A DNA stretch of 64,000 bases, taken from positions 341,868,001-341,932,000 of the forward strand of contig OZ024741.1 of NCBI GenBank assembly GCA_964016885.1, written 5' to 3'. Origin of the DNA: Eledone cirrhosa. Taxonomy: Eukaryota. A program made the translations under genes and the position numbers. The notes beneath the pieces were generated by a model. The model was not told the DNA's origin. It saw only the letters and a program-made list of their open reading frames with translations, and did no database searches. Of this stretch, positions 4,201-57,865 are shown piece by piece (positions within the stretch are counted from its first letter, which is position 1; the number at the start of each line of letters is the position of its first letter).

Positions 4201-5440
4201 AGAAGACTTGGGATGAAATGATAGAAGCTATAGAGTAGGAAGAGCAAAGAAGACTTGGGATGAAGTGATAGAAGCTATAGAGTAGGAAGAGCAAAGAAGA
4301 CTTGGGATGAAATGATAGAAGCTATAGAGTAGGAAGAGCAAAGAAGACTTGGGATGAAGTGATAGAAGCTATAGAGTAGGAAGAGCAAAGAAGACTTGGG
4401 ATGAAGTGATAGAAGCTATAGAGTAGGAAGAGCAAAGAAGACTTGGGATGAAATGATAGAAGCTATAGAGTAGGAAGAGCAAAGAAGACTTGGGATGAAG
4501 TGATAGAAGCTATAGAGTAGGAAGAGCAAAGAAGACTTGGGATGAAGTGATAGAAGCTATAGAGTAGGAAGAGCAAAGAAGACTTGGGATGAAGTGATAG
4601 GAGCTATAGAGTAGGAAGAGCAAAGAAGACTTGGGATGAAATGATAGAAGCTATAGAGTAGGAAGAGCAAAGAAGACTTGGGATGAAGTGATAGTAGCTA
4701 TAGAGTAGGAAGAGCAAAGAAGACTTGGGATGAAGTGATAGAAGCTATAGAGTAGGAAGAGCAAAGAAGACTTGGGATGAAATGATAGAAGCTATAGAGT
4801 AGGAAGAGCAAAGAAGACTTGGGATGAAATGATAGAAGCTATAGGGTAGGAAGAGCAAAGAAGACTTGGGATGAAGTGATAGAAGCTGACCTTGTACAAT
4901 AGTAAGGCAATGACACAGCACAGAATCAAGATCTCTGAGATTATGCAGTAATACTGAAGACCCGCCTTCCCATAAGCACAGGTTGAAACATACATCTAGC
5001 ATGCACCACCTTTCCCTCAATCCTCCCTACCCTCCAACGTCCTAACACTTCACCCACATCCTAACACCCCACCTCCCTCACACATGCACCTATATCTACC
5101 TCACCAATCCTCACGCACATCCCCCACCCAAGGTTCAAGCTCACACTTTAAAGTGATAGTTTTGGTGCCACAACTAAAAGAAGTCAGCCCACACTGTAAA
5201 GTGATTGTGTAGGTGTCACAATAAAATGTGCCAAGTCCACACCATTAAGTGGTTGTGTAGGTGTCAGAACAAAAAGCACCCAGTACACACTATAAATGTG
5301 GTTGGCATTAGGAAGGGCATCCAGCCATAGAAACCAAGCCAGAAACAGTTCTGTATGAGCAAGACACGATCACCTCACCTGACCTACCTCAAATGGGACA
5401 ACCCATCTAATTCCTGCTAGTCATTAAACAATGATGATGA
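1203..5440 (+). mobile_element. Decayed 3' part of RTE-clade LINE (family B, long 3' UTR) split by an internal minisatellite
   Basis: RLYVTCIHSVMLHGSEAWAVTAEDLHRWERNEANML then IDRSYRVGRAKKTWDEVIEAD, matching RTE C-termini at 24684-25121. Resumes at 4888 with gaagacccgcctt, 3' UTR ttaggaagggcatccagc and (ATG)n tail at ~5431-5440. Confidence 0.85.
1446..4887 (+). repeat. 47-bp minisatellite, 73 units (tgatagaagctatagagtaggaagagcaaagaagacttgggatgaag)
   Basis: tgatagaagct at 1446, 1493 and last at 4877; 4877-1446 = 73 x 47. Confidence 0.97.
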
Positions 5441-5873: not shown

Positions 5874-5989
5874 TATATATATATATAATTATATGTATGT
5901 GTGAGTCATGGGTTCAATCAGGGGTAACCATAGTAAGTAAGGTACTCAATACATTAATATAGTGTATACAACAAATTTAAAATAGAAAT

Positions 5990-6040
5990 GGCTTCTACAG
6001 GACTCAAACTGTTTCATTCAAAGAAATCATCAGGAAAGCC
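5990..6040 (-). ncRNA. Putative type-I hammerhead ribozyme inside a fold-back (5970-6105)
   Basis: GGCUUUC-CUGAUGA-U UUC uuu GAA U-GAAACAG uuugaguc CUGUA/GAAGCC: stem III ACAG/CUGU, GUA triplet, stem I with one bulge. Confidence 0.6.
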
Positions 6041-6106
6041 CTGATGATTTCCTTCAAATGAAACAGTTCTAGTCCTGTAGAAGCCATTTCTATATTAAAT
6101 TTGTTA

Positions 6107-6140
<34 letters not shown>

Positions 6141-6890: not shown

Positions 6891-7091
6891 TATAAAGGTC
6901 TGTAATCAGATAATGTTTATAACCAGTAAAACATATACCAATGCATGTCTTACATTAACTATAGTATGATTTATGTTTGTGTGTGTGTTACATTCATCCT
7001 CTTATATATAAATGTTAATAGATATCTGTTTGTATGAAGCCAAATTTTCTGAAATACATTATACATATATGTATATACATATATATATATA

Positions 7092-8523
7092 TCATCATCA
7101 TCATTTTACGTCCGCTTTTCCCTGCTTGCAAGGGTGGGACGGGTCTTATTCAGCACAGCATCTCTCCACTTGTCACGGTCCTTCGTCATCTCCACCGTGA
7201 GCTTCAATGATCTGAGGTCTGTTCTCACCACCTCCGTCCATGTTTTTCGTGGTCTACCTCTACCACATCTTCCTTCAACTGGCATTTCCTGGCACTTCTT
7301 CAGCCATCGGTCATCCTCCATGCGCATCACATGTCCATACCACCTCAGTCTCCTCTTCCGTACACTACATTCTATCCCTCTCAGACACAGTTTCTCTCTC
7401 AACACATTTATGCTGGGTCGTTCACGCACATTTACACTGCACATCCAACGGAGCATGCTTGCCTCATTTCTCTCCAGCCGTCACATATCCTCTGCAGTTG
7501 CTGCCCATGTCTCACTACCATGCAGCATCGCGCTCCTCACACAGGCATCATACAACCGGCCTTTCGTACGCAGGGAGAAACCCTTCTTCGTCAACAGAGG
7601 AAGCAGCTCCCTAAACTTCTTCCAACCCGTCCTTATTCTAGATACTATGGCCTCAGAACACCCTCCTCCCATGCTAATCTGATCTCCTAGGTACCGGAAG
7701 CTATCCACCACTTCTATAGCGCCCTCCTGCATTTGAAAAATGTGTCTATCAATGCGACTTCTACTGTCTAATTTCCCTGTACATCTACTGCATACATATT
7801 TCTCCCTACCTGTTAGTTTGCCTGCTATCCCACTACATCTCTTGTGTACCCAGGATCTGCATTGTGTGCATTTTATAGAATTTATGCCAGTTCCTTTTCT
7901 GCATATTGAACATGGCCATTTCCCTGACGGAATCAGAGTTTTGTCCTCTTTTCTACTCATCAACACTTTTGTCTTAGCTAGGTTCACTCTCAGTCCTCTT
8001 GCTTCCAACTGCTGTTTCCATAGACAGAATTTATTCTCTAGCTCCTCTACTGATTCTGCTATAAGAACCAGATCATCAGCATAGAGAAGTTCCCATGGAC
8101 AGCCAGTCTTAAACTCCTCTGTTATGGCTTGGAGGACTATAATGAACAAGAGCGGGCTGAGGACCGAACCTTGATGTACTCCTACTTGTATCTGGAATTC
8201 CTCACTAAACTCCATTCCTACCCTGACTTTACTGAGAGTACCTCTGTACAAAGTTTGCACTGTCCTCACAAGCCATTCCTCAACACCTAGCTTCCTTAGG
8301 GACCACCAGATGACAGATCGTTGTACCCTATCAAAGGCCTTCTCTAGGTCAACAAAGGCTAAGTATAGTGGCTTATTTTTCTCCAAGAACCTCTCTTGCA
8401 ATTGTCTCACCAAGAAGAGGGCATCTGTTGTACTCTTCCCAGGCACAAAACCAAACTGCATCTCATCTAGTTTGAACCTTTCTCTAATTAGTTGTGCTAA
8501 TATCCTTTCTGCCACTTTCATAA

Positions 8524-13219: not shown

Positions 13220-13652
13220 TAAAGGTTCAATGAATAAATCAATGAATATAGTTTTACAATAGATTAGAAGCACTCCACAGTTTGGTTTTCCAGAGTTATT
13301 AATATTAATTCAAAATATTAACAAATATAGACATTCGTGTGATCAAGTATATTTTATTATTCATATTTCAGAGGTACTGAGCTATCTTCAACAGTACGTC
13401 CTCATCAGATAAAATAAGATGATGCTTGACATACGTTGACTAAGTAGATGGTTAAAATTCAGTCATGGCAGTGAATTTTAACCATCTACTTAGTCATGAC
13501 TGAATTTTAACCATCTACTTAGTCAACGTATGTCAAGCATCATCTTATTTTATCTGATGAGGACGTACTGTTGAAGATAGCTCAGTACCTCTGAAATATG
13601 AATAATAAAATATACTTGATCACACGAATGTCTATATTTGTTAATATTTTGA

Positions 13653-13653
<1 letters not shown>
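13220..13653. mobile_element. HHR-bearing short element with ~159-bp inverted repeat (13309-13467 / 13495-13653)
   Basis: Arms are reverse complements; homologous to 15790-16023. Confidence 0.8.
13546..13612 (+). ncRNA. Type-I hammerhead ribozyme (mirror copy 13350-13416 minus)
   Basis: UAUUUUAU-CUGAUGA-GGAcGUACUG..CAGUACcUCU-GAAAU auga AUA/AUAAAAUA; 8-bp stem I. Confidence 0.75.
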
Positions 13654-15756: not shown

Positions 15757-15811
15757 TGCCAATACTGGAATTGAATAATCAAGACCGTAGCGGTATGTCA
15801 TATATCAAATC

Positions 15812-15883
15812 ATATATTTTGTCTGATGAGGACGTACTGAAAAAACAACACAGTACCTTTGAAATATATATAATAAAGTATAT
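15812..15883 (+). ncRNA. Type-I hammerhead ribozyme, paralogue of the 13.5-kb motif
   Basis: AUAUAUUUUGU-CUGAUGA-GGAcGUACUG..CAGUACcUUU-GAAAU AUAU AUA/AUAAAGUAUAU; 11-bp stem I with 2 GU pairs, palindromic stem III loop. Confidence 0.75.
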
Positions 15884-16022
15884 ATTTTGATTATGAGAAT
15901 ATTTTTCATTTGTTAACATTTCGAATAAAATTAAAAACTCCAGGAAAACCTTTTGTTGGGTGCTTCTAATCTATTGTAAAATTGTATTCGTTGAGTAATC
16001 AACGAATCATACTAATCTTTGG

Positions 16023-27963: not shown

Positions 27964-28257
27964 TGTATGAATCGAAGTTGTAGCTGCAATATAGTATGTA
28001 CTAATCGAATTGTTTGAGGCTATTACAAAGCATTCAATGGAGCGAGAAGTTAATACAGTATCGTCCAGAGTAAACGCAAAAGTTAAAAAGTGTTCCACCA
28101 AAAAAATGACTGAAGGCAGTGGCCATACATTACAACAATGATAAATACAGTGTGATTCTGTATTATGGAAAAACGAGCTCACTAAATGTAAATATCAATC
28201 TAAGTTATCAATGCAAACTATGAAACTACTAGTTCCATATATACATATGTATATATA

Positions 28258-29013
28258 TCATCATCATCATCATCATCATTTTACGTCCGCTTTTCCCTGC
28301 TTGCAAGGGTGGGACGGGTCTTATTCAGCACAGCATCTCTCCACTTGTCACGGTCCTTCGTCATCTCCACCGTGAACTTCAGCGATCTGAGGTCTGTTCT
28401 CACCACCTCCGCCTCCATGTTTTTCGTGGTCTACCTCTACCACGTCTTCTTTCAACTGGCATTTCCTGGCACTTCTTCAGCCATCGGTCATCCTCCATGC
28501 GCATCACATGTCCATACCACCTCAGTCTCCTCTCTCGCATACTACATTCTATCCCTCTGAGACACAGTTTCTCTCTCAACACATTCATGCTGGGTCGTTC
28601 ACGTACATTGACATTGCACATCCAACGGAGCATGCTTGCCTCATTTCTCTCCAGCCGTCGCATATCCTCTTCAGTTGCTGCCCAAGTCTCACTACCATGC
28701 AGCATTGCACTCCTCACACAGGCATCATATAACCGGCCTTTCATACGCAGGGAGAAACCCTTCTTCGTCAGCAGAGGAAGTAGCTCCCTAAACTTCTTCC
28801 AACCCGTCCTTATTCTAGATACTATGGCCTCGGAACACCCTCCCATGCTAATCTGATCTCCTAGGTACCGGAAGCTATCCACCACTTCTATAGCACCCGC
28901 CTGCATTTGAAAAATGTGTCTATCAATGCGACTTCTACTGTCTAATTTCCCTGTACATCTACTGCATACGTATTTCTCCCTACCTGTTAGTTTGCCTGCT
29001 ATCCCACTACATC

Positions 29014-29912: not shown

Positions 29913-30420
29913 ATATTGTTATACTTTGGGAGGGTCATGTTGCCAATAAGAAACACACGCACCAGTTGCTTTCACTTCAATTTAATTTATTAAATATTTA
30001 TAAATTTACAAATTTATAAATTTCTGGTTGGTTGGTTGGTTCCACAACCAGATAGTTGTTTATATATATATAGTCATAGTTCTTTCGTCACACACTCTGT
30101 GACCTCTTCAGTGACTGGGGATTTCTTTCTTCGTTTCTGTGCCTTTCCTTTCTTCTATCCTACGCCAGAAAAATGGCGTAGGATAGAAGAAAGGAAAGGC
30201 ACAGAAACGAAGAAAGAAATCCCCAGTCACTGAAGAGGTCACAGAGTGTGTGACGAAAGAACTATGACTATATATATATAAACAACTATCTGGTTGTGGA
30301 ACCAACCAACCAACCAGAAATTTATAAATTTGTAAATTTATAAATATTTAATAAATTAAATTGAAGTGAAAGCAACTGGTGCGTGTGTTTCTTATTGGCA
30401 ACATGACCCTCCCAAAGTAT

Positions 30421-30428
<8 letters not shown>
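29913..30428. mobile_element. Head-to-head palindrome of a Penelope-like 3' terminal repeat (255-bp arms, 6-nt loop)
   Basis: Arms 29913-30167 and 30174-30428; homologous to 49032-49275. Confidence 0.9.
30225..30269 (+). ncRNA. Hammerhead-like motif in PLE terminal repeat (mirror 30072-30116 minus; paralogue 49177-49219 minus)
   Basis: AGUCA-CUGAAGA-g-GUCACA gagug UGUGAC-GAAAG aa CUA/UGACU; extra base after A9, very short stem III. Confidence 0.55.
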
Positions 30429-30475
<47 letters not shown>

Positions 30476-30734
30476 CACATAAAAAAAGAAAATGTTCACT
30501 CTACATGGCTGAATACAATAAATGTAATCTGAGTTTTTCGAATATTAATAATAATATTCGATTCATTTGCAATTATGCAAACAAGTCTCATTTTTATAGC
30601 CATATCAGTAGAATGAACTCTTAATTCTTGCTTTTGTGCTGGCATGTAAACAGAACTGACTGCCGATCAGTCACTGTATATTTTAGAAAATAGCATATAT
30701 TTTCACTAGCTTTGACAGTTGGCAAGTGAACAGT

Positions 30735-30784
30735 GAGCTGTACTGATGAAGGGTGATACCTAGAAACATTAGTGTCTGCAGTTC
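30735..30784 (+). ncRNA. Type-I hammerhead ribozyme within an imperfect fold-back element (30554-30880)
   Basis: GAGCUGUA-CUGAUGA-aGGGU gau ACCUa-GAAACAUUAGUGUC/UGCAGUUC; 8-bp stem I, GUC triplet, near-palindromic stem III. Confidence 0.7.
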
Positions 30785-30888
30785 TGTTTACATGCTAACA
30801 CAAGAGCAAGAATGAAGAGTTCATTCTACTATGGCTATAAAAATGAAGCTTGTTTGCATAATTGCAAATGAATCGAATATATACATAC

Positions 30889-31306: not shown

Positions 31307-31308
<2 letters not shown>

Positions 31309-31402
31309 CATAAATTCAGGCTGTTCGTTTGTTTACAAACGGACAAAGCGGGCGTTATAATAAACGTCCGCTAAACTGATACGTACATATATGTATGTGT
31401 AC

Positions 31403-31501
<99 letters not shown>

Positions 31502-31992
31502 TGCTACTGTACGTCTGTATACATATATGTATGTACGTATACATACATACTTACATTTAAGTAAGTGCCGTACTAAGAGTGAGAAATGAAATTTCGTTTT
31601 CATTCTATTACAACTTATCGTTTTCGGTGCGCCTGGCCGACTAAACTCACTCGATATGCAAATTAAGCTGCTCAGCCGTTAATTTTCATAAGGAAAGTAT
31701 ATACTTTCGAACGTTCAACCATCTGGTAGAAGGGTATACGGTGCTGATGATAGCTAAGAAGCTTGAAACTAGTACATCGTTCCTGTGTCAGTGTTGAACA
31801 AAAAGGTGACGTGGTTGCCTTAACACCGTACGGCATAAATTCAGGCTGTTCGTTTGTTTACAAACGGACAAAGCAGGCGTTATAATAAACGTCCGCTAAA
31901 CTGATATGTATGTGTACCTGTATGTATATATATATATATGCATGCTACTGTACGTCTGTATACATATATGTATGTACGTATACATACATACT

Positions 31993-31998
<6 letters not shown>
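31307..31998 (+). mobile_element. Retrozyme-like non-coding partial tandem (period 525 including a TA expansion) with HHR at 31738-31780
   Basis: ggcataaattcaggctg at 31307 and 31832; ACGGUG-CUGAUGA-uAGCU aaga AGCUu-GAAAC ua GUA/CAUCGU. Confidence 0.75.
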
Positions 31999-33155: not shown

Positions 33156-36100
33156 CTACAGAACAATGTAGAGAGAAGGCCCATTTACACGAGCCATTCT
33201 CGCTTCTTTCACCCACCTTTCATAAAACTGTCTGGGGCCAAGCACTTCTCTCTCCATCCTGATCCTTCTTCCGAAGTGGTATCGGAAGAAGTAAACCAGG
33301 TGATGGCCGGAGAGAAAGTCACCCGACCTCAGACCTTTCAGGCGCGTCCACCACACAACCTCTTTCATCATGGCTATTACGCACAGAAAGACCGCCTCTG
33401 CTTCGTTTCTGAAGGGAGGCGGCGGCTTGATGTTCACCACAGACTCGGTGGTTAATCGAATCGGCGCCACACGCGACAGCAGTCGTTCGACGTAGCCCCA
33501 CAGATCGGCAACGCCCGGGCAGTGTACCAGTGCATGCGCAACGGTTTCCTCGTCGCGCACGCATCTGGGACAGATCTTTTTCGCTGGATCCCTGCCCGGA
33601 CGCCCGTGTCTGTATAGCTTTTCTCGAACGGGCAGAGCCCCCCGGTAACACTGCCAGGCTAGGGACCTCTGGAAGTTGTCCATGAGTCCCGGGCCGAAAG
33701 TTCTACCGAACAGGCTGGCCAGTTCGTCCTCCTTCATGCCTAGCGACTCTCCAAGGGTGTCGTCGCCCCTGCTAGCCACCAGCCCTCTATAGAATGTCGA
33801 GGTGGATTCTCCACTGACAGTCGGGTCCGCTTGCCAGATAGCCGTGAGCGCCTAGGCACACTCGGTGTGCCAGTTGCCCAGTTTTCTCGGTCTTTGCTTC
33901 ACCCAGGATTGCAGCTCGGTGAGCGAGACGAGCTGTGGGAAGGCTCGCCTCACAAACGGGGCCCACACCGGCTGACCGGTGAGGAATACCTGTAGATGCC
34001 GTAGCCTCAATGCGTGCCTACGCATCAACAGCCACGGCATATCCAGCCCTCCTTTCGAAGGGTGCTGGCAGCAGATGGATCTCCTCACCATGGGAGGCCG
34101 CTTCTTCCAGAGGAACTGGAAGAGCATGCGTTCCATGATGGTGATCTTTTCCTTGGGGCAAGGCACGACGGTCAGGCGGTAGCATATGACGGACGCTATG
34201 TAAGCGTTCGTCACCTCCGCCCGACCTTTCAGTGATAGTTTGCACTTGGCCCACTTCTGGGTCAGCGCAAACACCCTGCTCGTCACCTCGCCCCAATTCT
34301 TCTCCACCTGGAGGTCCGGTCCGAACCAGACCCCGAGCAGCTTCACCGGGCCCTCCGTCCACCGCCCAACGACACCGTCTAACGGCATCGGTTTGCCCCT
34401 CCACGTTCCGAGTTGCAAACCGACTGACTTGTCCCGGTTCAGCCTAGCCCCCGTCAGCCTTTCGTATTCCTCCAGTAGGGTGGCGATCGCCCCGGTTTCC
34501 GAGGCGTCCGCCACCATTACTGTTACGTCGTCGGCATAGGCCGAGACCGCTTTGTGCAATCCCGGTTCCAGGGGTATGCCCCGCAGCAACTCCAACTTCC
34601 GCACAGCAGTGGCTCGAGAGTCAATACGTACAGAAGGGAGGAGAGGGGGCACCCCTGTCTGATGGACCGGGTGATTTGAAACGGCTCCGAGAGGTAGCCG
34701 TTTACTTTAATCCTAGAGTAGATGTTGCCACTGTGCATGGCAGAAATCCAGCCCCTGAAAACGGGTCCGAAGCCCGCCGCCGCTAGCACCGCATCCAGGT
34801 AACCATGGTCGACCCTATCGAACGCCTTAGATTGATCCAAGTTGATCAGGGCCCCACCAAAGCCGGGTTCGTTGCCAACCCTCTCTATGATGTATCGCAT
34901 GAGGTGGAGGTTGTCGTGAATGGACCTGGACGGGATAGCGCATGTCTGCGCGTCTCCCACCAAACCACCCACCACAAGCGCCAACCTCTTCGCCAACACC
35001 TTGGCCAAAATCTGTAACTCTGCATTCAGCAGAGTTATGGGCCTAAAGTTACTTAAGTCGTCCCCCTTGCTCTCGTCCTTCCTCACTAGCGTGACCACGC
35101 CCTTGGTCACAGAACAGGGAATTCTCCCGTTCTGTTGCCAGTTACAATAGACAGCCTCGAGGAGTTCGGAGAACAAGACCGGCATAGCTAAATAAAGTTC
35201 GTATGGTAGACCATCGAGACCCGGAGATTTGCGTCTGCTGCATTGGCTGAGCGCTTCCCCGATTTCAGTGGCTGTGATTGGCCTTTCGCAGCACTCTGCT
35301 TCGCCGCTCGAAAGACGCGGTAGACCGTCGAGGTATGGACCGAAGTCCACATCCCCGTCCGGCCCCCCGCCCCCTCCGAACAGTCGAGCAAAGTGCCTTT
35401 GAAAGGCCTCGCACATCCGCTCAGGTTCAAGGATCACCCGTCCATCCTGGTCTCGCAAAGACCGAATGGTGGATTTAATCCCACTCTTGGCTTCTGTCAC
35501 GCGGCCCCAGCTAACAGCTTTGGTCCCCTCGTTTCCTAAAGCACGTATTTTACTTCGGACAACGCAGCCTTCGTGCTTCGCGTCAAAGAACTGGCTCAAC
35601 GCCGTTCTCGCCGCTAACACTCTGGCTACGTCTCCGCTCCTAATCGCCTCTTCTAGTTTATCTGTTAACTCCCTTTCCTTCCTATTTCTATTCGCCGCTA
35701 GTTCCTTACTGTAACCTATCGAACTTACTCTAATCTCTCTCTTTAGAGATACCCACCACCTACTGTTGACGATCGCTCCCGTCAACCGCATCTTAACTAA
35801 GCTACTAATCCGGTTCCTGTAATCTTTCTTTGCCGGCAAGGACAAGTTCATCTTCCAGTAACCGGGACCCTGTCTATGCGTTCTATCAAGGTTAACCACG
35901 CAGGTCACTAATTTGTGATCTGAATAGCCAACCATGATCAATTCTGGACAACTAAATACTCCTAACCAAAAACCTATCTAGGTACGATCTAGATTGTCCA
36001 CTGCGGTTTGCCCAGGTCCAGGTTGGCGCAGTTGGACAATCTAGTCAAAATCTATCGACCAGGTCGAATCGATCGAGTAACCCCTTGAGGCTGCTACACC

Positions 36101-36587
36101 CCCCTCTATCGGGACATGCCCCTGCATAGTCCCAACGCGCATCTAGGATTCCATTCCAGTCCCCCACTAAAAGCAGGGAACGCGACGTTCCTAGAAAAGT
36201 CTCCAGTCGCTGGAAGAAGTCGGCTCTTTCAGCCCCGAAGGGGGCATAAAGACCGACCAGTCTGAAAGCCCCGCCTTCACCGCCTCCGACGTCCAGCACC
36301 AGTAATCGACCCCCCGGGTCCGAGTGAACAATCTGTACGTCGAGAGCCAGATGTTTATCCAGCAGTACGGCAACTCCCCCTCCCCCCCCCCCCCCCCCGC
36401 CTCCGGGTTGACAGAGAGATGCGTGCATCTCAAAGTCATCGAAGGCGGGAGCCAGCTGTCGCACGCTGCTGATCCGACTCTCGCAAACAACCATCACATC
36501 TATACTTCGTGACCTGAGGTCACTTAGTAGCTTTGCTTGCTTCCAAGCTGAGCCCAGGCCACGCGCGTTCAAACAGCCAACTCTCAA
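33156..36587 (-). pseudogene. ORF2 (AP endonuclease + reverse transcriptase), broken by stops and frameshifts near 36045, 34600 and 33852
   Basis: [78 protein letters not shown]. Confidence 0.92.
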
Positions 36588-36592
36588 TTGAT

Positions 36593-38455
36593 CTATTTTG
36601 GTGTTGAAAGTGAAGAAAGAAAAGCACCTACCTCTCCGGGCTGTGTAATTTCCATGGCGTCAGGTGTGTTGGGTGGAGGGATGTTTTGTGGTGGTGTGGG
36701 GGTGCCCGAGTGTGGTGGGGTTGGGGTGTTTGGAGTTGTGTCAGGGAGAGGGGAGGTTATGGGGAAATCTTTCAAGAGGACGCGATTTAACGGTTTTAAA
36801 CAGGGGGGGGGGGGGCTCACGTCCTGTCTAAATTGTTCTTTTAAGGAACGATAAAGGTCCAGAGGGACCTTTATCATTTTTAAATGGGTGAAGTTCTCTG
36901 TTGAGATAAAGTTTGGCCCTTCGGTCTGCACCAAAGGGCTATTGTTTATTAATTTAAACAGTTTTTTGTTTTCTTTATTTATATATGTGTATTGCAATGT
37001 CTTTTTTTGTGATACTGTCAATGTTTCGGAGAGGGGAGGCGCAGATTTATTTTTGTTTGTTGAGGGTGGGGTGTTTTTTATTGGAGTTGGTGTTTGTGTG
37101 TGGGTTATTTGTGGTGTGCTGGGTGTGTGCTTTCTTTTTTTTCTTTTAACTTGTCTGAAGGCTTCTCCTCCTCCTTCTTCTTCAGAAGTTGGGGGAAACT
37201 CTTCAGCGCTAGGTGGGAGGGACGTCGTTTCTGGTTGGTTTTTTTTTGCGGGAGGGGTAGATTTGTTGCTGTTTTTTTTATTATTTGTTTGGAATGCGTT
37301 TTGTGGTGGTGGTGGTGCTGTTTGTGTCGTGCTTGTGGTTGGTAATGGTGGTGGTGGTGTTTGTGTTGGTGATGGTGGTGGTGATTTTTGTGTCGTGCTT
37401 GTGTTTGGTGCTGGTGGTGGTGATGTTTGTGTTGTGCTTGGTGGTGTTTGTATTTTGTTTGCTGTGTGTGGTATTAGTGTATTTTTGGAGGTGGGTGGTG
37501 TTGGTGTACTGTTTGTGATGGGTGTGGGCAATAGTCCTTTTTGGGGGATACGTTTCGGGCAGTTAGCCTTAATGTGTCCCCTTTCCGTGCATAAATAGCA
37601 TGCTGGTCTTCTCCCCTCTACAATTATATCTATTGGGGTGAGCTCATCCAGCCAGATGCGATCCGGGATTTGTGCTATTCTTTCGGGCCTCATTTGGACT
37701 AGTAGGTCGAGGCCCATTCCCAGGAACGCATCTCCGGATGCCTTCCCCATTGACAGCACTGTGTCCTCGCCCATGTCTATGAAGCCAGCAATAGCCCACC
37801 AGAAGTCCATTGTGGGCAGCATTGTTTGTATTTTTACTCTCTGTGTTCTTCTACCCATGTAGGAGGGATAGAAGCTGTATGTTGTCGATGAGAGTGGGCT
37901 TAGGGAAAGCTTCTCCGCCGTTTCCTTGTCTTTTGTTAGGACCGAAATGCTGCCATAGAGTCGGTCCTTTCGTATGAAGAGAATATTCTTCATATAGTCT
38001 TTTAGGACCAACTCTATCTCCATTTGGCTGGGCTGTGCTGGCTTTCTTGTTTGGTTTAGGATTGTTCTTAAGAGAACTGTGTTCTCTGTTCTCGCTTTCT
38101 TGAATTCTGGGGGGGAGTTAATGGAAAACATTCCGTTCTCCCCCAAAACAATGTGTTTCTTTGCTTCGGCCAGTTTTTCTCTGGCGGCCGTTAGGTCAAT
38201 TGGTGTGTATGTAATGGATTGTTTTGTTTTCTGGGCGAAAGTTGCCCTGTTGTTATTTGTATTATTTTCTGTTTGTTTGTTTTCCGTTTGCTCATTTTCC
38301 TTAACATTTGTTTTTTCATTTTCTTTGTTTGTTTCGTTGTCTAATTTTGTTGTAATTATTTTTTGTTCTTCAGACTTGGGGGGCGTGGCAGAGCTAATGG
38401 CAGACATGTCTGCCATCTTTTCCGCCATGCTGCCAAGAACGAAATTTTTCGGCAA
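36593..38455 (-). CDS. ORF1 of Tx1/L1-like element (CCHC zinc knuckle, Pro/Thr-rich tail)
   Basis: Open 620 aa; CYLCTERGHIKANC; RQVKRKKRK. Confidence 0.85.
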   Translation of the reverse strand: MPKNFVLGSMAEKMADMSAISSATPPKSEEQKIITTKLDNETNKENEKTNVKENEQTENKQTENNTNNNRATFAQKTKQSITYTPIDLTAAREKLAEAKKHIVLGENGMFSINSPPEFKKARTENTVLLRTILNQTRKPAQPSQMEIELVLKDYMKNILFIRKDRLYGSISVLTKDKETAEKLSLSPLSSTTYSFYPSYMGRRTQRVKIQTMLPTMDFWWAIAGFIDMGEDTVLSMGKASGDAFLGMGLDLLVQMRPERIAQIPDRIWLDELTPIDIIVEGRRPACYLCTERGHIKANCPKRIPQKGLLPTPITNSTPTPPTSKNTLIPHTANKIQTPPSTTQTSPPPAPNTSTTQKSPPPSPTQTPPPPLPTTSTTQTAPPPPQNAFQTNNKKNSNKSTPPAKKNQPETTSLPPSAEEFPPTSEEEGGGEAFRQVKRKKRKHTPSTPQITHTQTPTPIKNTPPSTNKNKSAPPLSETLTVSQKKTLQYTYINKENKKLFKLINNSPLVQTEGPNFISTENFTHLKMIKVPLDLYRSLKEQFRQDVSPPPPCLKPLNRVLLKDFPITSPLPDTTPNTPTPPHSGTPTPPQNIPPPNTPDAMEITQPGEVGAFLSSLSTPK

Positions 38456-38652
38456 AAATAGATATTTATTTTACCCCCTAAAAAGGGGGTAAATGCAAAA
38501 ATGTTTCCCTAAATAACAGGGGTTAGTGTTCCAAATGTGTTGCACTGAAAAATTTATCCGGTACATACAATAGTAAGGGTAAATCCCGATGGAATAGCGG
38601 AGCCGATGTGAAGCGTGTCTTACTCTATCAAGATAGATAGATAGATAGATAT

Positions 38653-41305
38653 ATTTCTTTATTAGCCACAGGGGCACAAAAGAAGGGGACAAATACAAAG
38701 GGGGAAGTTTACATACAATAAAAACGTGTAAAATGTTATCACAGATGGAATTTAAAAGTTAGTCGATTTTCCCCAATAGAGGGAGACAGTTTATATGGGT
38801 AACACATACCCCCGGAAAAAAATGTGCAACCCTCATCTCCAGGAGTACGAAGAGCTTGTACTCCTTTCCTCTCCTCCTTCTTTTCCTCAACCTACAGGCT
38901 GATATAGAGAGAAGGCCCATTCACTCGGGCCATTCTCGCCACTTTCACCCACCTTTCATAAAACCTCTCTCTCCATCCTGATTCTTCTTCCAAAGTGGTA
39001 TTTGAAAAAAAGAATCAGTTGTTGGCCGGAGAGAAAGGTGTCTGACCTCAGCCCTTTCAACCTTGTCCACCATACAACCTCTTTCGCCATAGCTATCACA
39101 CAAAGGAAAACCGCCTCTCCTTCGTTTTTGAAGGAGGGTGGCGGTTTGATCATGACAATGGACTCGGTGGTCAACTGGATTGGTCCCACCCGCGACAATA
39201 GTCGTTCTACATAGCCCCACAGGTCAGTGACGCCCGGGCAGTGTATGAATGCGTGCGCGACGGTTTCTTCGTCTCGCACGCACCTCGGACAGATCTTTTT
39301 TGCAGGGTCCCTGCCCGGGCGCCCATGTCTGTAGAGCTTGTCTCGAACTGGTAGAGCTCCTCGGTAGCACTGCCAGGCCAGGGACTTTTGGAAGTTGTCC
39401 ATCGGTCCCGGGCGGAAGGTCCTACCGAACAGACTGGCCAGTTCATCTTCCTCTACGCCTAGAGTTTCACCGAGCGCGTCGTCGCACTTGCTGCGGACCA
39501 ACCCTCTATAGAATGACGAAGTGGAGTCTCCACTGATCGCCGGGTCCGCCTGCCAGAGGGCTGTGAGCGCCTGAGCACATTCGATGTGCCAGTCGCCCAT
39601 ATTCCTCGGTCTCTGCTTGACCCAGGACTGCAGCTCGGTCAGCGAGACGAGTCGTGGGAAGGCTCGCCTCACGAACGGGGCCCACACCGGTTGTCCGGTG
39701 AGGAATACGTAGAGATGCCGCAGCCTGAGCGCGTGTTTGCGCATCGTCAACCACGGCATCCCCAGCCCTCCGTTAGAAGGGTGTTGGCAGCAGATGGATC
39801 TTCTCACCAAAGGAGCCCGCCTCTTCCAAAGGAATCGGAAGAGCGCGTGCTCCATTTTGGCGAGCGTTTTGGCTGGACAAGGCACGACGGTCAAGCGGTA
39901 GTAGATGGCGGACGCTATAAAAGTGTTCGCCACCTCCGCTCGACCTTTCAAGGATAGTTTGCACTCGGCCCACTTCTGGGTGAGTGCAAACACCTTGGCC
40001 GTCACTTCGTTCCAGTTCTTCTCCACCTGGAGGTCCGGACCAAACCAGACCCCGAGCAGCTTTACCGGTCCTTCCGTCCAGCGTCCGACGACGCCATCGG
40101 AAGGCATCGGTCTGCCTCTCCACGATCCGAGTTGCAAACCGATGGACTTGTCCCGGTTCAGCTTCGCTCCTGTGAGACTTTCGTATTCCTTTAGTAAGGT
40201 GCCGACTTCCTCGATTTGCGAGGCGCTCGACACCATTACTGTCACGTCGTCGGCGTAGGCCGACGCCGCTTTCCGCAGTTCCGGTTCCAGAGGGATGCCC
40301 TGCAATAGCTCCAGCTTCCGCAGTAGTGGCTCGAGAGTCAGTACGTACAGAAGGGAGGAGAGAGGGCATCCCTGTCGAATGGATCGCGTAATATGGAACG
40401 GCTCCGAGAGGTAACCGTTCACCTTGACCCTTGAGCAGATGTTGCTGTTGTGCATTGCAGCAATCCAGCCCCTGAACACGGGTCCGAAGCCTGCCGCCTC
40501 GAGGACCGCATCCAGGTAACGATGGTCAACCCTATCGAAAGCCTTAGACTGATCCAAGTTGATCAGGGCCCCACCGAAGCCGGGTTTACACCCTACCCTC
40601 TCTATGATGTATCGCATGAGGTGGAGGTTGTCGTGTATGGACCTGGTCGGGATCGCGCATGTCGGCGCTTCTCCCACCAGGTTCTCGACGACAAGCGCCA
40701 GCCTCTTTGCCAACACCTTGGCCAAAATCTGTAATTCTGTGTTTAGCAGAGTTATGGGCCGGAAGTTGCCTATGTCATCCCCCTTATTCTCGTCCTTCCT
40801 GATTAGTGTGACCACGCCCCCGGTTACAGAACTGGGAATTCTCCCGTTCTGTTGCCAGTTGCAGTAGACCGCTTCCAGGAGACCGGAGAATAAGTCCGGC
40901 ATTGCTACGTAAAATTCGTAGGGTAGACCGTCGAGACCTGGAGATTTGCGTTTGCCGCATTGGCTCAGCGCGTCCCCTATCTCAGTGGCTGAAATCGGCT
41001 TTTCGCAGAACTTCGCCTCGCTGTCCGAGAGTCGGGGTAGGCCGTCGAGGTATGGACCGAAATCCATAGCCTCTCCCGGCGCGCCGCTCCCCCCGAACAG
41101 CCGAGCAAAGTGCCGCTGAAAAGCCGCACACATCTGCTTCAGCTCACGTATCACGCGTCCGTTTTGGTCCTTCAAAGACCGAATCGTGGACTTGTTGCCA
41201 CTTTTTGCCTCCGTCACTCGGGCCCAGCTAACAGCTTTGGCTCCCTCGTTTCCCAGAGCACGTATTTTGCTTCTGACAACGCAGCCCTCGTGCTTTGCGG
41301 CGAAC

Positions 41306-46119: not shown

Positions 46120-47340
<1,221 letters not shown>

Positions 47341-47344
47341 ATAT

Positions 47345-48568
47345 AAACAAATAACGAAACGAAATTAAATTTCGTTTCGTTTGTAACTCACTTTTGTATG
47401 ACTGACGCTTAAACAATTAAGTTAAAAATGTACATCTACATATGCATACTGAAATACTAGTGTGTATATGAATACACACACGTATACATATGTAGGTGTA
47501 CCAAGTCTTTCACTGGTCGCTTTACAGTGAGCGGCCCAGCTATTCTGTATGTAAACACACAGACAAACCGGTTTTTAGAGTCATACTGGTTTTTCGGGGG
47601 AACACCTTCCCCCTATTCTCCAGAAAGCCAGACAAGGAATATTGAACTAGTTTCGTTGTTGTTACAACTCATCAGCAATATTTACCTATCTACCGGCCTT
47701 TCTGGAGAATTGTAAAAGCACATATCGTTATATGCTTTTTCTATGAAAATTAGTAGTGGGCAGACTAATTTGCATAGAGTGTGAGTACGCACCGGTTCAG
47801 CGGAGACGATAAAAACAAATAACGAAACGAAATTAAATTTCGGAGTTACAAACGAAACGAAATTTAATTTCGTTTCGTTATTTGTTTAGGGGGAATAGGG
47901 GGAAGGTGTTCCCCCGAAAAACCAGTATGACTCTAAAAACCGGTTTGTCTGTGTGTTTACATACAGAATAGCTGGGCCGCTCACTGTAAAGCGACCAGTG
48001 AAAGACTTGGTACACCTACATATGTATACGTGTGTGTATTCATATACACACTAGTATTTCAGTATGCATATGTAGATGTACATTTTTAACTTAATTGTTT
48101 AAGCGTCAGTCATACAAAAGTGAGTTACAAACGAAACGAAATTTAATTTCGTTTCGTTATTTGTTTTTATCGTCTCCGCTGAACCGGTGCGTACTCACAC
48201 TCTATGCAAATTAGTCTGCCCACTACTAATTTTCATAGAAAAAGCATATAACGATATGTGCTTTTACAATTCTCCAGAAAGGCCGGTAGATAGGTAAATA
48301 TTGCTGATGAGTTGTAACAACAACGAAACTAGTTCAATATTCCTTGTCTGGCTTTCTGGAGAATAGGGGGAAGGTGTTCCCCCGAAAAACCAGTATGACT
48401 CTAAAAACCGGTTTGTCTGTGTGTTTACATACAGAATAGCTGGGCCGCTCACTGTAAAGCGACCAGTGAAAGACTTGGTACACCTACATATGTATACGTG
48501 TGTGTATTCATATACACACTAGTATTTCAGTATGCATATGTAGATGTACATTTTTAACTTAATTGTTT
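47345..48568. mobile_element. Retrozyme-like 468-bp unit: ~1.07 copies minus joined head-to-head to ~1.45 copies plus
   Basis: Period 468 on both strands (47348/47816; 47893/48361); no coding signal. Confidence 0.8.
48297..48341 (+). ncRNA. Minimal type-I hammerhead ribozyme (identical mirror 47638-47682 minus)
   Basis: AAUAUUG-CUGAUGA-GUUGU aaca ACAAC-GAAAC ua GUU/CAAUAUU; perfect stems I and II. Confidence 0.85.
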
Positions 48569-48626
48569 ATATATATATATATATATCCATATCCATATAT
48601 ATATATATATCCATATATATCCATAT

Positions 48627-48664
<38 letters not shown>

Positions 48665-48720
48665 ATATATATCCATATCCATATATATATATATATATAT
48701 ATATCCATATATATCCATAT

Positions 48721-48760
<40 letters not shown>

Positions 48761-49031
48761 ATATATATATATATATATATCCATATCTATATATATATAT
48801 ATCCATATATATATATATATATATCCATATATATATATCCATATCCATATATATATATATATATATATCCATATATATATATATATATATCCATATATAT
48901 ATATCCATATCCATATATATATATATATATATATATATCCATATATATATATATATATATATCCATATCCATATATATATATATATATATCCATATCCAT
49001 ATATATATATATATATATATCCATATATATA

Positions 49032-50980
49032 TATTGTTATACTTTGGGAGGGTCATGTTGCCAATAAGAAACACACGCACCAGTTGCTTTCACTTCAATT
49101 TATTATAATAAATTTATAAATTTATAAATTTCTGGTTGGTTGGTTGGTTCCACAACCAGATAGTTGTTTATATATTGTCAAAGTTCTTTCGTCACACATT
49201 CTGTGACCTCTTCAGTGACTGGGGATTCTTTTCTTTGTTTGTTTTTGTGCCTCTCCTTTGTTCTGTCCTACGCCATTTTGTTTCTGTGTGTGTGTTGTGT
49301 GCTCAGTCTGCGCATGCTCCACATCCGGGTGTCTGTGTGTGTTTATTTATTTGTTTATTTACATGTTACCGGTTGGTTGTTTGTTCTATGTGTGTGTGTG
49401 TTTTCATTTTGTCCTTAATTGTAAGTTGTGATGTTGCTGTTCCACTCATATTTTCTATTTAATTTTGGTTGTAATTCTTTTATGTTTATTGCCTCTGTGA
49501 TTTGTCTAAACATTGCGTCTTTTCTGTGTGTAGACTCTATTTTTATTTCTATGTTCTCTAATTTACCCTTATGTTCTATTTTAGCATGTTGGTAGAGTAC
49601 AGATGATTCTTTACTATCTTCAAGGTCTCGCCAGTGTTCATTTATCCGTTCCCCTACACTACGAGCTGTCTCACCTATGTACACTATATTTTTTTGTCCT
49701 ACTTAAACTTACCTATAGTAATAATTACCTAGACACATATGACCTTAGCAACCTGTGCCCTACAAGACCAGCAAGAGGCAGAGCACCTACCATTACCTCA
49801 ATGGCCAAGAAAACCCACACAGATAGATGAAACGGGTGGACCAGAGCCATACGGACACCCGAAAACCACGATGAACTAAAGAAAATGATTTCACATGCGA
49901 TAGGGGCCAGCATAAAACTAACCCTTAAGGAACATATGTTCAAATTTAATGGAAAAACATATGCCCAAGAGGAAGGAGCAGCCATTGGTGTTAGCATTGC
50001 AGGCGACATAGCTAACTTATTCATGGTATGGTGGGACAGTAGACTTAAACTTAAAGTTAAAGAACAATTAGAAGACCCCTTAACCCTGATAATGTACTCC
50101 CGCTACGTTGATGATATAAACATCGTAGTTAAGACACCCCCACTAGAGAACAGTCAGGAACTAGAGAAAAACACAATGGAAAGCATCCAGAAAATAGCTA
50201 ACTCCATCCACCAGAGTATTAGAGTTACTATAGACTACCCAAGTAAACACCCCAACCATCGATTACCTGTACTAGACACAGAGCTCTGGTTAGATACCAT
50301 TAATAACAAAAAACAAATCCTCCATTCCCATTATGCCAAACCCATGACTTCCAAACATCTGATCCACCGAAACTCGGCTGTTTCGGACCATACCAAAATC
50401 AACATACTGATTGCGGATTTGGGACGGGTGATGAGAAACGTGTCCCGCATGTGCACCCCCGAAGAACTAGAGAGACACATACAACACTTCATCCACCGTA
50501 TGCAGTTCTCTGGTTACAATCAGAGAGATAGAATCAGAGTGTATAGAGGAGCCAGAACCAAATGGGAAAAAATGGTAAATAATGACACAAATGGGACCTG
50601 CCCCTTGTATAAGAGCAAATTTTGGAATAGAATAGAAAGAACTAGGAATAAGGCTAATAGAATAAACTCATGGTATGATAGCAATAAATACCAGAGTGTA
50701 ATGTTCATCGATACAACCCCTAGAGGTGAATTAGCTTACAAATTTAGAACGGCCCTAGATAAACATAAACTCAATATTAAGATAGTAGAAAGACCAGGTA
50801 CCTCTGTAAAAACACTTATTAGCAAGACATGCCCTTTCCAAAGACCCCCCTGTATAGATAAGAAATGTATAACCTGTAAAATAAACCCCCATATTAACTG
50901 TAAAACTAGAAATGTAGTGTATAGCATAAGATGTACTGAAGGACAATGTAGAGACAAAAATATAGTGTACATAGGTGAGA
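49032..50980 (-). mobile_element. Penelope-like element with 5' inversion: GIY-YIG end plus terminal repeat on minus (49032-~49700), RT inverted on plus (~49720-50980)
   Basis: Plus: GAAIGVSIAGDIANLFM, YSRYVDDI, LPVLD, NVVYSIRC..IVYIGET. Minus: YIGETARSVGERINEH..RQITEAINI..LNRKYEW. Confidence 0.9.
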
Positions 50981-51170
50981 CATTGCTCCAGTTTACTCAC
51001 CTGTATATGGGGTCCCTACCATTCCACTGTAGAGTGGTCGTGGAGGTGCCACGGAAAAAAAGCACCCAGCACTCACTGTAAATGAGGTTGGTGTTAGGAA
51101 GGGCATGCAGCTGTAGAAATCAAGCCAAAATCAGTTCCCGTCCCACCTTTGCAAGCAGGGAAAAGACGGA
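50981..51170 (+). mobile_element. Chimeric-tail SINE fragment
   Basis: ttgctccagtttactca..gtggtcgtggaggtgcc..cagttcccgtcccacctttgcaagc. Confidence 0.8.
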
Positions 51171-52917
51171 CCATATCTCGCTCGTATAGGACTGTCTGGC
51201 ACGTTTTCTACAGCTGGATGCCATTCCTAACACCAACGATGTTTGCAGTGTGGACTGGGAGGTTTTTACCGTGTTACCTACATGGCCACATTACAGCGTC
51301 GACTGTGTTTTTTTTTTGTCGTGACACCTACACGGCCTCATTTATTTAGGACTGGATGTTGTGGTACCAACTTAACTTTACAGAGAAAGGGGTGGTGTTG
51401 ATGGGGGTGGGGTGGGCAGTTGGGGTGTATATTCGATTAAGAGGTGCCTACTGACTGTAGGTTTCGCTTTGTACTTAGGCAAGGCGGGTTTTCTGTATTA
51501 CTGCGTAGCGCCAAAGATCTCGGTCCAGCGAAATTGTCTTAGAGAGGTGTAAGTGTGTAAGGTCGGAATTTATCAAATCGTCCCAGGTTTATCTGGGACT
51601 GCCTACTCCGTAACTTCGGTCAATTTTGATCGCCCTGCACTTTTTTATACAGCTATCATCTTTCATGTGCATCACGTGACCATACCAACGTAGTCATCTC
51701 TGGAGTAAACAGCATCTGATCCCTCTTATACCTAATTTCTCACTTAGTTCATTTATGCTTTGCTGTTCACGTATATTACTATTACACATCCAGTGGAGCA
51801 TGCAAGCTTCGTTCCTCTCCAGTCTGCGTATATCCTCTGCACACAATCCCCATGTCTCACTGCCATGTAACATAGCTGTTCATATGCAGGCATCATACAG
51901 CCTGCCTTTCATTTTTAGAGAGAAACCTTTAGCGGCCAATAGTGGTATAAGCTCTCTGAACTTTTTCCATCCCGTTCTGACTCTGGCTACTGTACTTTCA
52001 GAGCACCCTCCACCACTGCTGATTTTCCACTATTTCTATAGAGCCATCTGGGCAATAGAAGGAGCTAGTATCCTGTGGGCGCTTGCTACTTATTGCACCA
52101 GAGCACCGGCCACATATAAAATCTACATTCTTAGATAGCTTACATGTGATCCCACTACATCTCTTATGCACCCATACTTTGCATTTGGGACATAAAATGG
52201 AATTTCTGCCTACTCTTTTCCTACACACTGAGCATGGCCATTTCCCAGAGGGGACCTGTGCCCTATTTTCCTTCCTACATACTAGAACTTTAGTCTTAGA
52301 CAAGTTAACTTTAAGGCCCTTTTATTCTAGGCCATGCTTCCATGTTTGGAATTTCTTCTCTAGTTCATCCATCGATTCAGCTATGAGCATTAGATCATCT
52401 GCATAGAGAAGTTCCCATGGGCAGCCAGTTTTGAACTCCTCTGTTATAGCCTGAAGGGCAATAATAAATAGGAGGGGTCTAAATAGGACAGAGCCCTGAT
52501 GAACACCAACTTTTATGCTAAATTCTTCATTATATTTGTTGTTAATTCTAACCTTGCTGACTGTTTCTTTATACATGGCTTGTATAGCTCTCACAAGCCA
52601 TTCATCAACCTCTAGTTTTCTAAGGGCTCACCAGATAATGGTGCGGGGGGACTCTGTCAAATGCTTTCTCCAAGTCAACAAAAGCTAAGTATAGGGGTTT
52701 ACTTTTAGCTAGGTATTTCTCCTGTAGTTGTCGTACAAGGAAAAGAACGTCTGTGGTACTTTTACCTGAGACAAATCCAAACTGCATTTCGTCTAGATCA
52801 ATTTGCTGTTCTGATTAGTTATAACTCTTTCTGTGACCTTCATGACCTGGTCAATTAATTTAATGCCTCTATAGTTTCCTCTATCTAGTGCATCTCATTT
52901 ACCCTTGTAGCAGTTAA
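51171..52917 (-). mobile_element. Decayed RTE family B, 5'-truncated
   Basis: GVHQGSVL, WELLYADDL, WPCSVCRK..CKVWVHKRCSG; UTR like 24380-24680. Confidence 0.9.
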
Positions 52918-52934
52918 CGTCCATTTATATATAT

Positions 52935-53769
52935 ATAAACGGAAAAAATGAAACGAAATTTCATTTCCCACTCTTAGTACGGCTGTTACTTAAATATAAG
53001 TATGTGTACGTACATAAATATATGTATACAGACGTACAGTAGTATGTATATATATATACATACATGCACACATATATATATGTACGTATGGATTCACCGA
53101 ACATTTATTATAATACTCGGTGTGTTTGTAAACAAACATCCCGTATTAAGCCGTAGCGTCTAGCAACCATCGTTGCTCGTTTGTTCAACACTGACAAAGG
53201 AACGATGTACTAGTTTCAAGCTTATTAGCTATCGTCAGCAACGTATACCTTGCTGCCAGATGATTGAACGTCTGAAAGTATATACTTTCCTTATGCATAT
53301 TAACGGCTGAGCAGCCTAATTTGCATATCGAGTGGGTTAATCGGCCGGGTGCACCGAAAACGATAAACGGAAAAAAATGAAACGAAATTTCATTTCCCAC
53401 TCTTAGTACGGCTGTTACTTAAATATAAGTATGTATATGTACATACATATATGTATACAGACGTACAGTAGTATGTATATATATATATATACATACATGC
53501 ACACATATATATATGTAGGTATGGATTCACCGAACATTTATTATAATGCTCGGTGTGTTTGTAAACAAACATCCCGTTTTAAGCCGTAGTGCTCAGCCGT
53601 TAATATGCATAAGGAAAGTATATACTTTCAGACGTTCAATCATGCTGACGATAGCTAATAAGCTTGAAACTAGTACGGCGTTCCTTTGTCAGTGTTGAAC
53701 AAACGAGCAACGATGGTTGCTAGACACTAAGAGTGGGAAATGAAATTTCGTTTCATTTTTTCCGTTTAT

Positions 53770-53770
<1 letters not shown>
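52935..53770 (-). mobile_element. Retrozyme-like 428-bp partial tandem (minus) plus deleted inverted copy; HHR at 53202-53244 (minus), stem-I-damaged copy ~53644-53676 (plus)
   Basis: ataaacggaaaaaatgaaacg period 428 (52940/53368); ACGUUG-CUGACGA-uAGCU aaua AGCUu-GAAAC ua GUA/CAUCGU. Confidence 0.78.
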
Positions 53771-57002: not shown

Positions 57003-57865
57003 AATAATGTTTCTACTTTTGGCACAAGTACATTACAGGTACATTACAGGTACTTTATTTTATTGACCCTGTAAGGATGAAAGGCAAAGTTAACCTCGAT
57101 GGGTTTTGAACTCAGAACGTAAAAGGACATAACTCCATGCTGCAAAACATGGTGTCTGACATTCTACTAATACTGCCAAACCACTGCCTTATACAGAATA
57201 ATAATTGTTTCTATTTTGGCACAAGGCCAGCAATTATCCAGTGCATTACTGGTACTTTATTTTATCGACCCCGTAAGGATGAAAGGCAAAGTTAACCTCG
57301 GCGGGATTTGAACTCAGAATGGCAAGGGCCATAACTCTATGCGTCAAAGCATGGCGTCCGACCCTCTACCGATACTGCCAACCCACCGCACTAACAGAAT
57401 AATAATTGTTTCTATTTTAGGCACAAGGCCAGCAATTACCCAGTGCATTACTGGTACTTTATTTTATCGACCCCGTAAGGATGAAAGGTAAAGTCAACCT
57501 CGGCGGGATTTGAACTCAGATCGTAAAGGGACGTAACTATGCTGGAAAGCATGGCGTCCGACTCTCTACCGATACTGCCAATCCACCGCACTAACAGAAT
57601 AATAATGGTTTCTTATATAGGCACAAGGTCAGTAATTTTGGGAGAGAGGAAAGTCGATTAAATCGACCCCAGTCCGTGACTGGTACTTTATTTTATCAAC
57701 TCCAGTCCGTGACTAATACTTTATTTTATCGACCCCATAAGGATGAAAGGCAAGTTAACTTCGGTGGGTTTTGAACTCAGACCGTAAAGGACCGTAACTC
57801 TATGCTGCAAAGCATGGTGTCTGACATTCTATCAATACTACTAAACCACTGCCTTATACAGAATA
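57003..57865 (-). mobile_element. Head-to-tail array of 4 SINE copies (~200-265 bp each)
   Basis: Repeating ggcacaaggcc..ggtactttattttatcgacccc..aggatgaaaggcaaagt..tttgaactcaga..actgccaa. Confidence 0.8.

Follow-up and report, generated by a model that had tools for sequence, protein, structure and literature searches.

A POU-type octamer in hammerhead-bearing repeats of Eledone cirrhosa may be one arm of a predicted RNA hairpin

The octamer ATGCAAAT recurs upstream of hammerhead ribozymes in a 64-kb window of the Eledone cirrhosa genome (the whole stretch of DNA analysed here), and is probably best explained as the 5' arm of a predicted RNA hairpin, P5, within a domain that a Penelope-like element (PLE) would recognise. 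The original prediction had offered two readings of this word: an internal snRNA-type promoter that makes the tandem self-transcribing, or one strand of a conserved RNA hairpin. An exact word search of the whole window returned the four octamers that it had reported (Table 1). They belong to three insertions: A1 (31307-31997), A2 (52938-53770) and B (47346-48569). A1 and A2 are 80% identical, and the A units are around 58% identical to B, i.e., there are two families. The predicted hairpin, the order of the helices, the dimer-type hammerhead, the insertion into (TA)n, the head-to-head arms and the two clusters of end sites can all be read from the sequence itself.

Table 1. Coordinates in the window of the repeat units, their octamers, hairpins and hammerheads, and of the neighbouring Penelope-like element.
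Feature	Positions	Strand	Details
Unit A1	31307-31997	+	~1.4 tandem monomers, core monomer ~441 nt, flanked by two (TA)n arrays
TATGCAAATTA in A1 (P5 5' arm, octamer inside)	31655-31665	+	Octamer 31656-31663
P5 3' arm, A1	31680-31690	+	Other strand reads TATGAAAATTA; one C-U mismatch in stem
Type I hammerhead, A1	31738-31780	+	Predicted cleavage after GUA at 31774
Hairpin P10, conserved UUUA loop (TGTTTACA)	31846-31870	+	Covaries between families A and B
Unit B, inverted arm	47346-47843	-	3' end at offset -38 into (TA)n
Hammerhead, B inverted arm	47622-47693	-	Rfam Hammerhead_HH9, 38.6 bits, E 3e-7; below gathering score 52
TATGCAAATTA, B inverted arm	47766-47776	-	Octamer 47768-47775; partner arm 47742-47752
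Unit B, forward arm	47844-48569	+	Period 468
TATGCAAATTA, B forward arm	48203-48213	+	Octamer 48204-48211; partner arm 48227-48237
Hammerhead, B forward arm	48286-48357	+	Extended helix I; predicted cleavage after GUU at 48334
Broken Penelope-like element	49035-50982		RT YVDD, CxxxxCxxC, VY.I.C..YIG start of GIY-YIG
Unit A2, main arm	52938-53589	-	Period 433, ~1.5 monomers
Hammerhead, A2	53202-53244	-	Descriptor scan
TATGCAAATTA in A2	53317-53327	-	Octamer 53319-53326; partner arm 53292-53302
A2 inverted arm	53590-53770	+	Begins within P5 loop, offset +13; keeps only 3' arm (53601-53611)

The placement of the octamers is non-random, but their number is uninformative: shuffles of the window contained 4.5 on average, and 71 out of 100 contained at least four. 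As predicted, the octamer precedes the CTGA.GA core of the hammerhead, by 88 bp in family A (from 31656 and 53326) and by 100 bp in family B (from 48204 and 47775), and an inverted near-copy is present at all four sites. The conserved word in full is the 11-mer TATGCAAATTA, which contains the octamer and is followed 13-14 nt later by a one-mismatch copy on the opposite strand (14 nt past the 11-mer in A and 13 nt in B, or 15-16 nt past the octamer). All nine matches to TATGCAAATTA in the window, allowing at most one mismatch, fall inside units A1, A2 and B, where the chance mean for the window is 4.5. The probability of finding the octamer anywhere in a shuffled monomer is around 0.03. The four sites are not independent because the two B copies (47410-47842 and 48137-48569) show 100% identity across 433 nt, leaving three distinct sequences and one deep comparison (A versus B). 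A fifth ribozyme copy (53645) has no octamer because the inverted arm of A2 begins past it, within the hairpin loop (offsets are counted from the octamer).

The units are likely to be self-cutting, non-LTR retrozyme-like repeats, a class that they fit except for having only around 1.5 units per arm. By their features they are additional representatives of an already known class of elements. Their monomers measure 433 (A2), around 441 (A1) and 468 nt (B), their GC content is 0.22-0.39 (2-kb windows), and the only ORFs that touch them, with a cut-off of 150 aa, are made of (TA)n repeats. No arm carries two ribozymes in tandem. A covariance model of the hairpin scored the four known copies and the truncated A2 arm at 41-101 bits, whereas the next of its 33 matches scored 20 bits; hence, the window contains no further copies. 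Like retrozymes (PMC7229834; 10.64898/2026.07.22.740005), the units are non-coding tandem repeats with a type I hammerhead, less than 50% GC, a self-paired predicted fold and a PLE nearby. They differ in that monomers of 433-468 nt stand at the top of the 150-450 bp range, and in that their short arrays fail the two-unit rule given by Li et al. for an active array. The available text of these sources does not mention head-to-head inversion, (TA)n targeting or two fixed end sites. The units are known here from genomic DNA, and their linear and circular RNAs and self-cleavage are predictions.

A type I hammerhead was found by descriptor scan in the repeat units, and in B also by the Rfam model, below its gathering score. 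All these ribozymes have a 6-bp helix I, a helix II of 4-5 bp, and a helix III of one bp capped by a CUAG loop inside the palindrome ACTAGT; A1 also has a U-U pair at the base of helix II. Metazoan type I ribozymes that act as dimers typically have weak palindromic helices III like these (PMC4209133, PMC7229834). There were no Rfam matches at the gathering level anywhere in the window. Some miRNA-family matches over a TA-rich stem were rejected, as they were of low complexity and far below gathering.

The hairpin offered by the original prediction holds as a predicted fold. P5 forms on the ribozyme strand in all three distinct sequences, with pair probabilities mostly of 0.86-1.0. RNAalifold also finds it when given an alignment made from sequence alone, in which 20 of the 98 pairs are altered on both sides. 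The pair directly above the 11-mer is A-U in A1, G-U in A2 and G-C in B, and in B additional pairs lengthen the stem at either end. P5 is part of a multi-helix fold common to both families, with the helices in the same order. Between A1 and B, 26 of the 62 pairs in nine helices changed, 19 of them by double compensatory change, counts that are inflated toward structure because the helix matching was manual and started from the separate fold of each unit. Folded as circles, the monomers are highly self-paired (paired fraction 0.66-0.68), with z-scores of -6.6, -8.1 and -11.2 on the ribozyme strand and of -3.0, -5.3 and -10.2 on the opposite strand (60 shuffles each).

The comparison of conservation with pairing gave a mixed result: the 5' arm has no changes, the 3' arm has two (both in A2), and the octamer has none of the compensatory changes that the original prediction had named as grounds for refutation. 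Pairing in the 11-bp core rests on prediction and on the flanking pairs, since the core itself lacks such changes. The 3'-arm variants each retain exactly one mismatch, which is the same C-U in A1 and B. In A2 the partner arm reads TATGCATATTA on the other strand, giving an A-A mismatch and restoring a C-G pair. With three sequences, the covariation of P5 is at the level of shuffles (336/500). Taken in isolation, the hairpin had z-scores of -0.84 (A1), -2.38 (A2) and -5.35 (B), i.e., that of A1 is no better than its shuffles.

All five outer 3' ends run into (TA)n, and they do so at two sites: at offsets -100/-103 in A1 and the forward arm of B, and at around -38 to -41 in the inverted arm of B and in both arms of A2 (about -41 and -39, placed by eye). 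Both sites lie at conserved single-stranded words, TTAAG and TTATCGT. All three insertions are partial tandems, and two of the three (A2 and B) have inverted arms, arranged head-to-head with their 3' ends outward. The inverted arm of A2 has two internal deletions (+67 to +86 and +169 to -82) and ends in (TA)n. The forward arm of B consists of a 44-nt piece reaching offset -38, where this internal template jump also lands, a jump to +157, and around 1.5 monomers that end at -103 in (TA)n. These deletions and jumps (53590-53770, 47844-47890) track the predicted fold, which suggests that the reverse transcriptase (RT) skipped on folded RNA. We also observed that both breakpoints of the large deletion of A2 lie in the outer stem P1, one on each of its complementary strands, and that the jump in B departs from the foot of the long ribozyme stem and arrives at end site II.

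These junctions resemble those left by PLEs, which make inverted 5'-truncated copies and target (TA)n, and whose Neptune/Nematis members carry a zinc motif (PMC8557442). A purified PLE of Anolis initiates reverse transcription at two internal sites and requires RNA that extends to around 55 nt 3' of them; it also cleaves both strands of AT-rich DNA and extends them (PMC11167929). The pseudo-LTRs of PLEs (Neptune/Nematis, and PAc of Anolis) share with our units the hammerhead, the partial tandem, the inverted 5'-truncated arm, the AT-rich targets and the two preferred 3' ends. They differ from them in that our units lack an ORF and have end sites around 60 nt apart, versus the 30-40 nt tail of PAc. 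No sequence kinship was detected between the units and the PLE ends in the window. The clustering of 3' ends 40 and 100 nt upstream of the hairpin indicates an RT-recognition module. We infer that the RNA from -100 to around +35 would be the domain where the RT is recruited and starts, with the octamer hairpin as its 3' part, and that the units were probably spread by Penelope-type retrotransposons. The three insertions offer junction-level hints of PLE mobilisation, in their inverted arms, TA targets and two fixed starts.

Under this favoured explanation, the sequence of the octamer would be kept because its hairpin lies in the domain bound by the Penelope-like RT, just downstream of the point where copying starts. 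Multimeric RNA would be made either by read-through or from a Pol II promoter of the pseudo-LTR type. The hammerheads would then cut as dimers, and the monomers may circularise. The PLE protein would bind the P2-P5 domain, nick (TA)n and prime cDNA at offsets of around -100 or -40. The match to the POU consensus would be a coincidence of an AU-rich stem.

Some sequence-specific constraint on the 11-mer is possible, because TATGCAAATTA is the longest invariant colinear word of the units (11 nt versus 9 and 6 nt for the words of the catalytic core; p around 0.006-0.08 depending on the null) and has no compensatory change. None of the 11 core pairs changed between A1 and B, versus the 26 of 62 elsewhere, and the C-U mismatch was also kept. 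The run test on core pairs gave p-values of 0.006 with the rate of all helices and 0.03 with that of the neighbours, and the column-shuffle test gave 0.02 across the entire unit and 0.08 locally. The two P5 arms match between A1 and B at 22 out of 22 positions, whereas the neighbouring helices P2, P3 and P6 changed in 7 of 22 pairs. Yet the whole P5 helix is not exceptional (3/14 positions changed between A1 and B, Fisher p 0.13), and at the scale of 18-mers the octamer block ties with hairpin P3 (15/18 three-way identity), both of them flanking end site II. Sequence inside an A-form stem is poorly read by proteins. Recognition of the RNA stem and binding of a POU factor to the DNA are inseparable with the present sequence data.

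A functional POU site of any type in the units seems doubtful. We retain it as a minority reading because the rough chance of the octamer being among the 16 invariant colinear 8-mers, counting both strands, is 6e-4, a figure that precedes correction for the many known motifs that a reader might have flagged. The T and TA that flank the octamer presumably fit the preferences of POU factors, and a weak likeness to what we take to be the SPH/ZNF143 motif was seen by eye next to it. TGTTTACA, which is also invariant, matches a forkhead site and lies in a covarying hairpin; hence, famous motifs do arise by chance in these units.

One form of a POU site, which we judge unlikely, is a dual use in which the 5' arm would be the POU site of an internal mRNA-type Pol II promoter or enhancer derived from a PLE pseudo-LTR. 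The 3' arm would maintain the pairing of the RNA and, on the opposite strand, may offer a second and weaker site. The canonical POU octamer has the sequence ATGCAAAT (PMC8233511), and the pseudo-LTR of Penelope contains both a start site and an internal promoter (PMC8557442). The length of the invariant word and the tests above would fit this reading, as would the two core substitutions, which spare the octamer arm and affect the 3' arm only, the pattern expected of a DNA site. The loop word CTGCYCA, kept although its pairing differs in A and B, points the same way. Against it stand the unexceptional P5 helix, the equal conservation of P3, and the forkhead-like word inside a covarying hairpin. 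In addition, an exact octamer within 300 bp upstream was found for none of the six other hammerhead matches in the window. One candidate, the hammerhead at 30743, was rejected as a third octamer family, as the words matching seven of the eight octamer positions upstream of it belong to an unrelated hairpin element, whose inverted arm contains them.

It is quite unlikely that the 11-mer is under no special constraint at all, with P5 pairing like any other helix and the identity over 11 nt reflecting retained ancestry or a recent exchange of the -75 to +45 segment between the families. This segment is more conserved overall (56% invariant columns versus 44%), and against that background the shuffle test gave the p-value of 0.08. 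The 3' arm of A2 changed at 2 of 11 bases, which is the background rate between A1 and A2, and there is a single deep comparison. Yet the full identity of both arms between A1 and B, with the mismatch included, contrasts with the changes in P2, P3 and P6.

An snRNA-type internal promoter, in which the octamer would be the distal element (DSE) acting with a PSE and would make the tandem self-transcribing as in newt satellite 2, is very improbable. This option of the original prediction found no support, though it was not refuted: no PSE candidate common to A and B was found, and within the zone where a PSE would be expected, around 100-210 bp downstream of the octamer, three-way identity drops to the lowest values of the unit (5-7/18 at offsets +146 to +176). 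In snRNA promoters the PSE is essential and lies 40-70 bp upstream of the start, whereas an octamer-bearing distal element, at -250 to -170, occurs in many but not all of them (PMC9652321). A conserved block at +192 to +211 (13/18) does lie at the DSE-to-PSE distance, and in family A it is followed around 30 nt later by TTATAATAAA. However, the changes in this block fall at paired positions and preserve pairing (U-A to G-U, C-G to U-A), as expected of a hairpin, and the TATA-like word is a hairpin loop that is missing from B. The contact-base pattern of the human U6 PSE had single unrelated matches in A1 and A2 and none in B, a scan limited by a human pattern that may not be the host's, as PSEs differ between animal groups. 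We found no mollusc PSE sequences in the literature searched, and the window has no snRNA gene to supply one because it has no Rfam match at the gathering level.

Other systems give the snRNA-type reading some precedent. The snRNA promoter of newt satellite II is stated to drive Pol II (one sentence in PMC2220036), and our hammerheads are of the type of axolotl HHR_Amex1, with a 1-bp helix III, a palindromic tetraloop and an expected action as dimers (PMC7229834). An octamer-like element has been predicted, and only predicted, in a flatworm U6 promoter (PMC5460494). In contrast, the words "octamer" and "DSE" do not occur in the accessible text of a paper on insect snRNA promoters (PMC1761439). 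Our units differ from newt satellite 2 in having the octamer within a paired stem and in yielding no counterpart of the PSE, the two repeats being likened by description and not by sequence. The unit of newt satellite 2 reportedly carries an octamer, as our units do, and is reported to use an octamer/PSE promoter. The exact octamer is common in vertebrate snRNA promoters; here it is internal to the transcribed unit, has an inverted near-copy 13-14 nt away, and has no PSE shared between the families. A capped start site and a dependence on SNAPc and POU factors may be imagined for the putative promoter and are hypothetical.

Transcription by Pol III is argued against by runs of T4-T7 at -59 to +58 in all units, which would stop the polymerase before the ribozyme. 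A Pol III variant, with a TATA box and no T-run before the ribozyme, was not found, the TATA-like word being present only in family A. There were no exact matches to the consensus of tRNA-type A and B boxes, the internal Pol III promoter of the schistosome satellite type, on the ribozyme strand of the three monomers, and no tRNA genes in the window.

PLEs were named as candidate movers of retrozymes in 2020 (PMC7229834), and Li et al. argue in a 2026 preprint that retrozymes derive from PLE pseudo-LTRs, while calling the mechanisms of their transcription and mobilisation unresolved (10.64898/2026.07.22.740005). In the literature that we searched, which included few subscription papers, we found neither an octamer nor a promoter described for an invertebrate retrozyme. 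The words "ribozyme" and "retrozyme" are absent from the available text of the repeat annotation paper of Octopus vulgaris (PMC13282606). The present analysis singles out an 11-bp element of possible function in these units. Should it prove to be no more than a hairpin, the result would be an ordinary one. If the POU site were true, these units would be a second, independent self-transcribing ribozyme repeat, parallel to newt satellite 2. A true POU promoter would leave the octamer invariant in DNA while it pairs in the RNA circle, and would explain the heavy transcription of retrozymes.

The broken PLE next to unit B is possibly of the type that could act as a helper. Its ORF matches Pfam RVT_1 (E 5e-4), and its protein has 88 homologues among 1051 candidates, the best at 53% identity and two of them from sea cucumber. 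It has an inverted arm, and its 3' end, at 49035, lies in the same TA array as unit B. The element is Neptune-like, with the ORF part inverted relative to the 3' end and a 22-nt duplication at the switch (49667-49688 versus 50961-50982). Also beside unit B is a short PLE-like 3' end (47057-47190), in which 29 nt are 90% identical to the ends at 29913 and 49031. Several insertions share a TA/TATCCA microsatellite hotspot at 46124-49034.

Ribozyme-bearing inverted pairs built like A2 and B occur elsewhere in the window, at 5949-6125, 13309-13653, 29913-30428 and 30554-30880. The first three of these and the one at 15801-15994 are inverted pairs that resemble pseudo-LTRs, or their relatives, with minimal hammerheads, most of them inserted into (TA)n. 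The pair at 29913-30428 shares 85-91% identity with the 3' end of the PLE at 49035. The element at 30554-30880 is a long inverted repeat in (TA)n (fold z-score of -18) with a canonical-looking type I hammerhead at 30743 that has a 3-bp helix III. Its arm carries TGTTTACA and TATGCAAA(C), words that are also kept in A and B; BLAST found no kinship between this element and units A or B, and the shared words are possibly due to chance.

The window also contains remnants of two LINEs of the L1/Tx1 type (33156-38470 and 38956-41300, minus strand), with endonuclease, RT and a Zn-knuckle ORF1 recognised by eye, which are GC-rich relative to the background. Fragments of RTE-like LINEs, also identified by eye, lie at 7053-8400, 28233-29000 and 51500-52930, and A2 abuts the one that ends near 52930. 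A 47-bp minisatellite with a strong purine skew occupies 1446-4887 (73 copies, 97% matches). Finally, a 202-bp repeat is present in three tandem copies at 57042-57737, and presumably resembles a cephalopod SINE.
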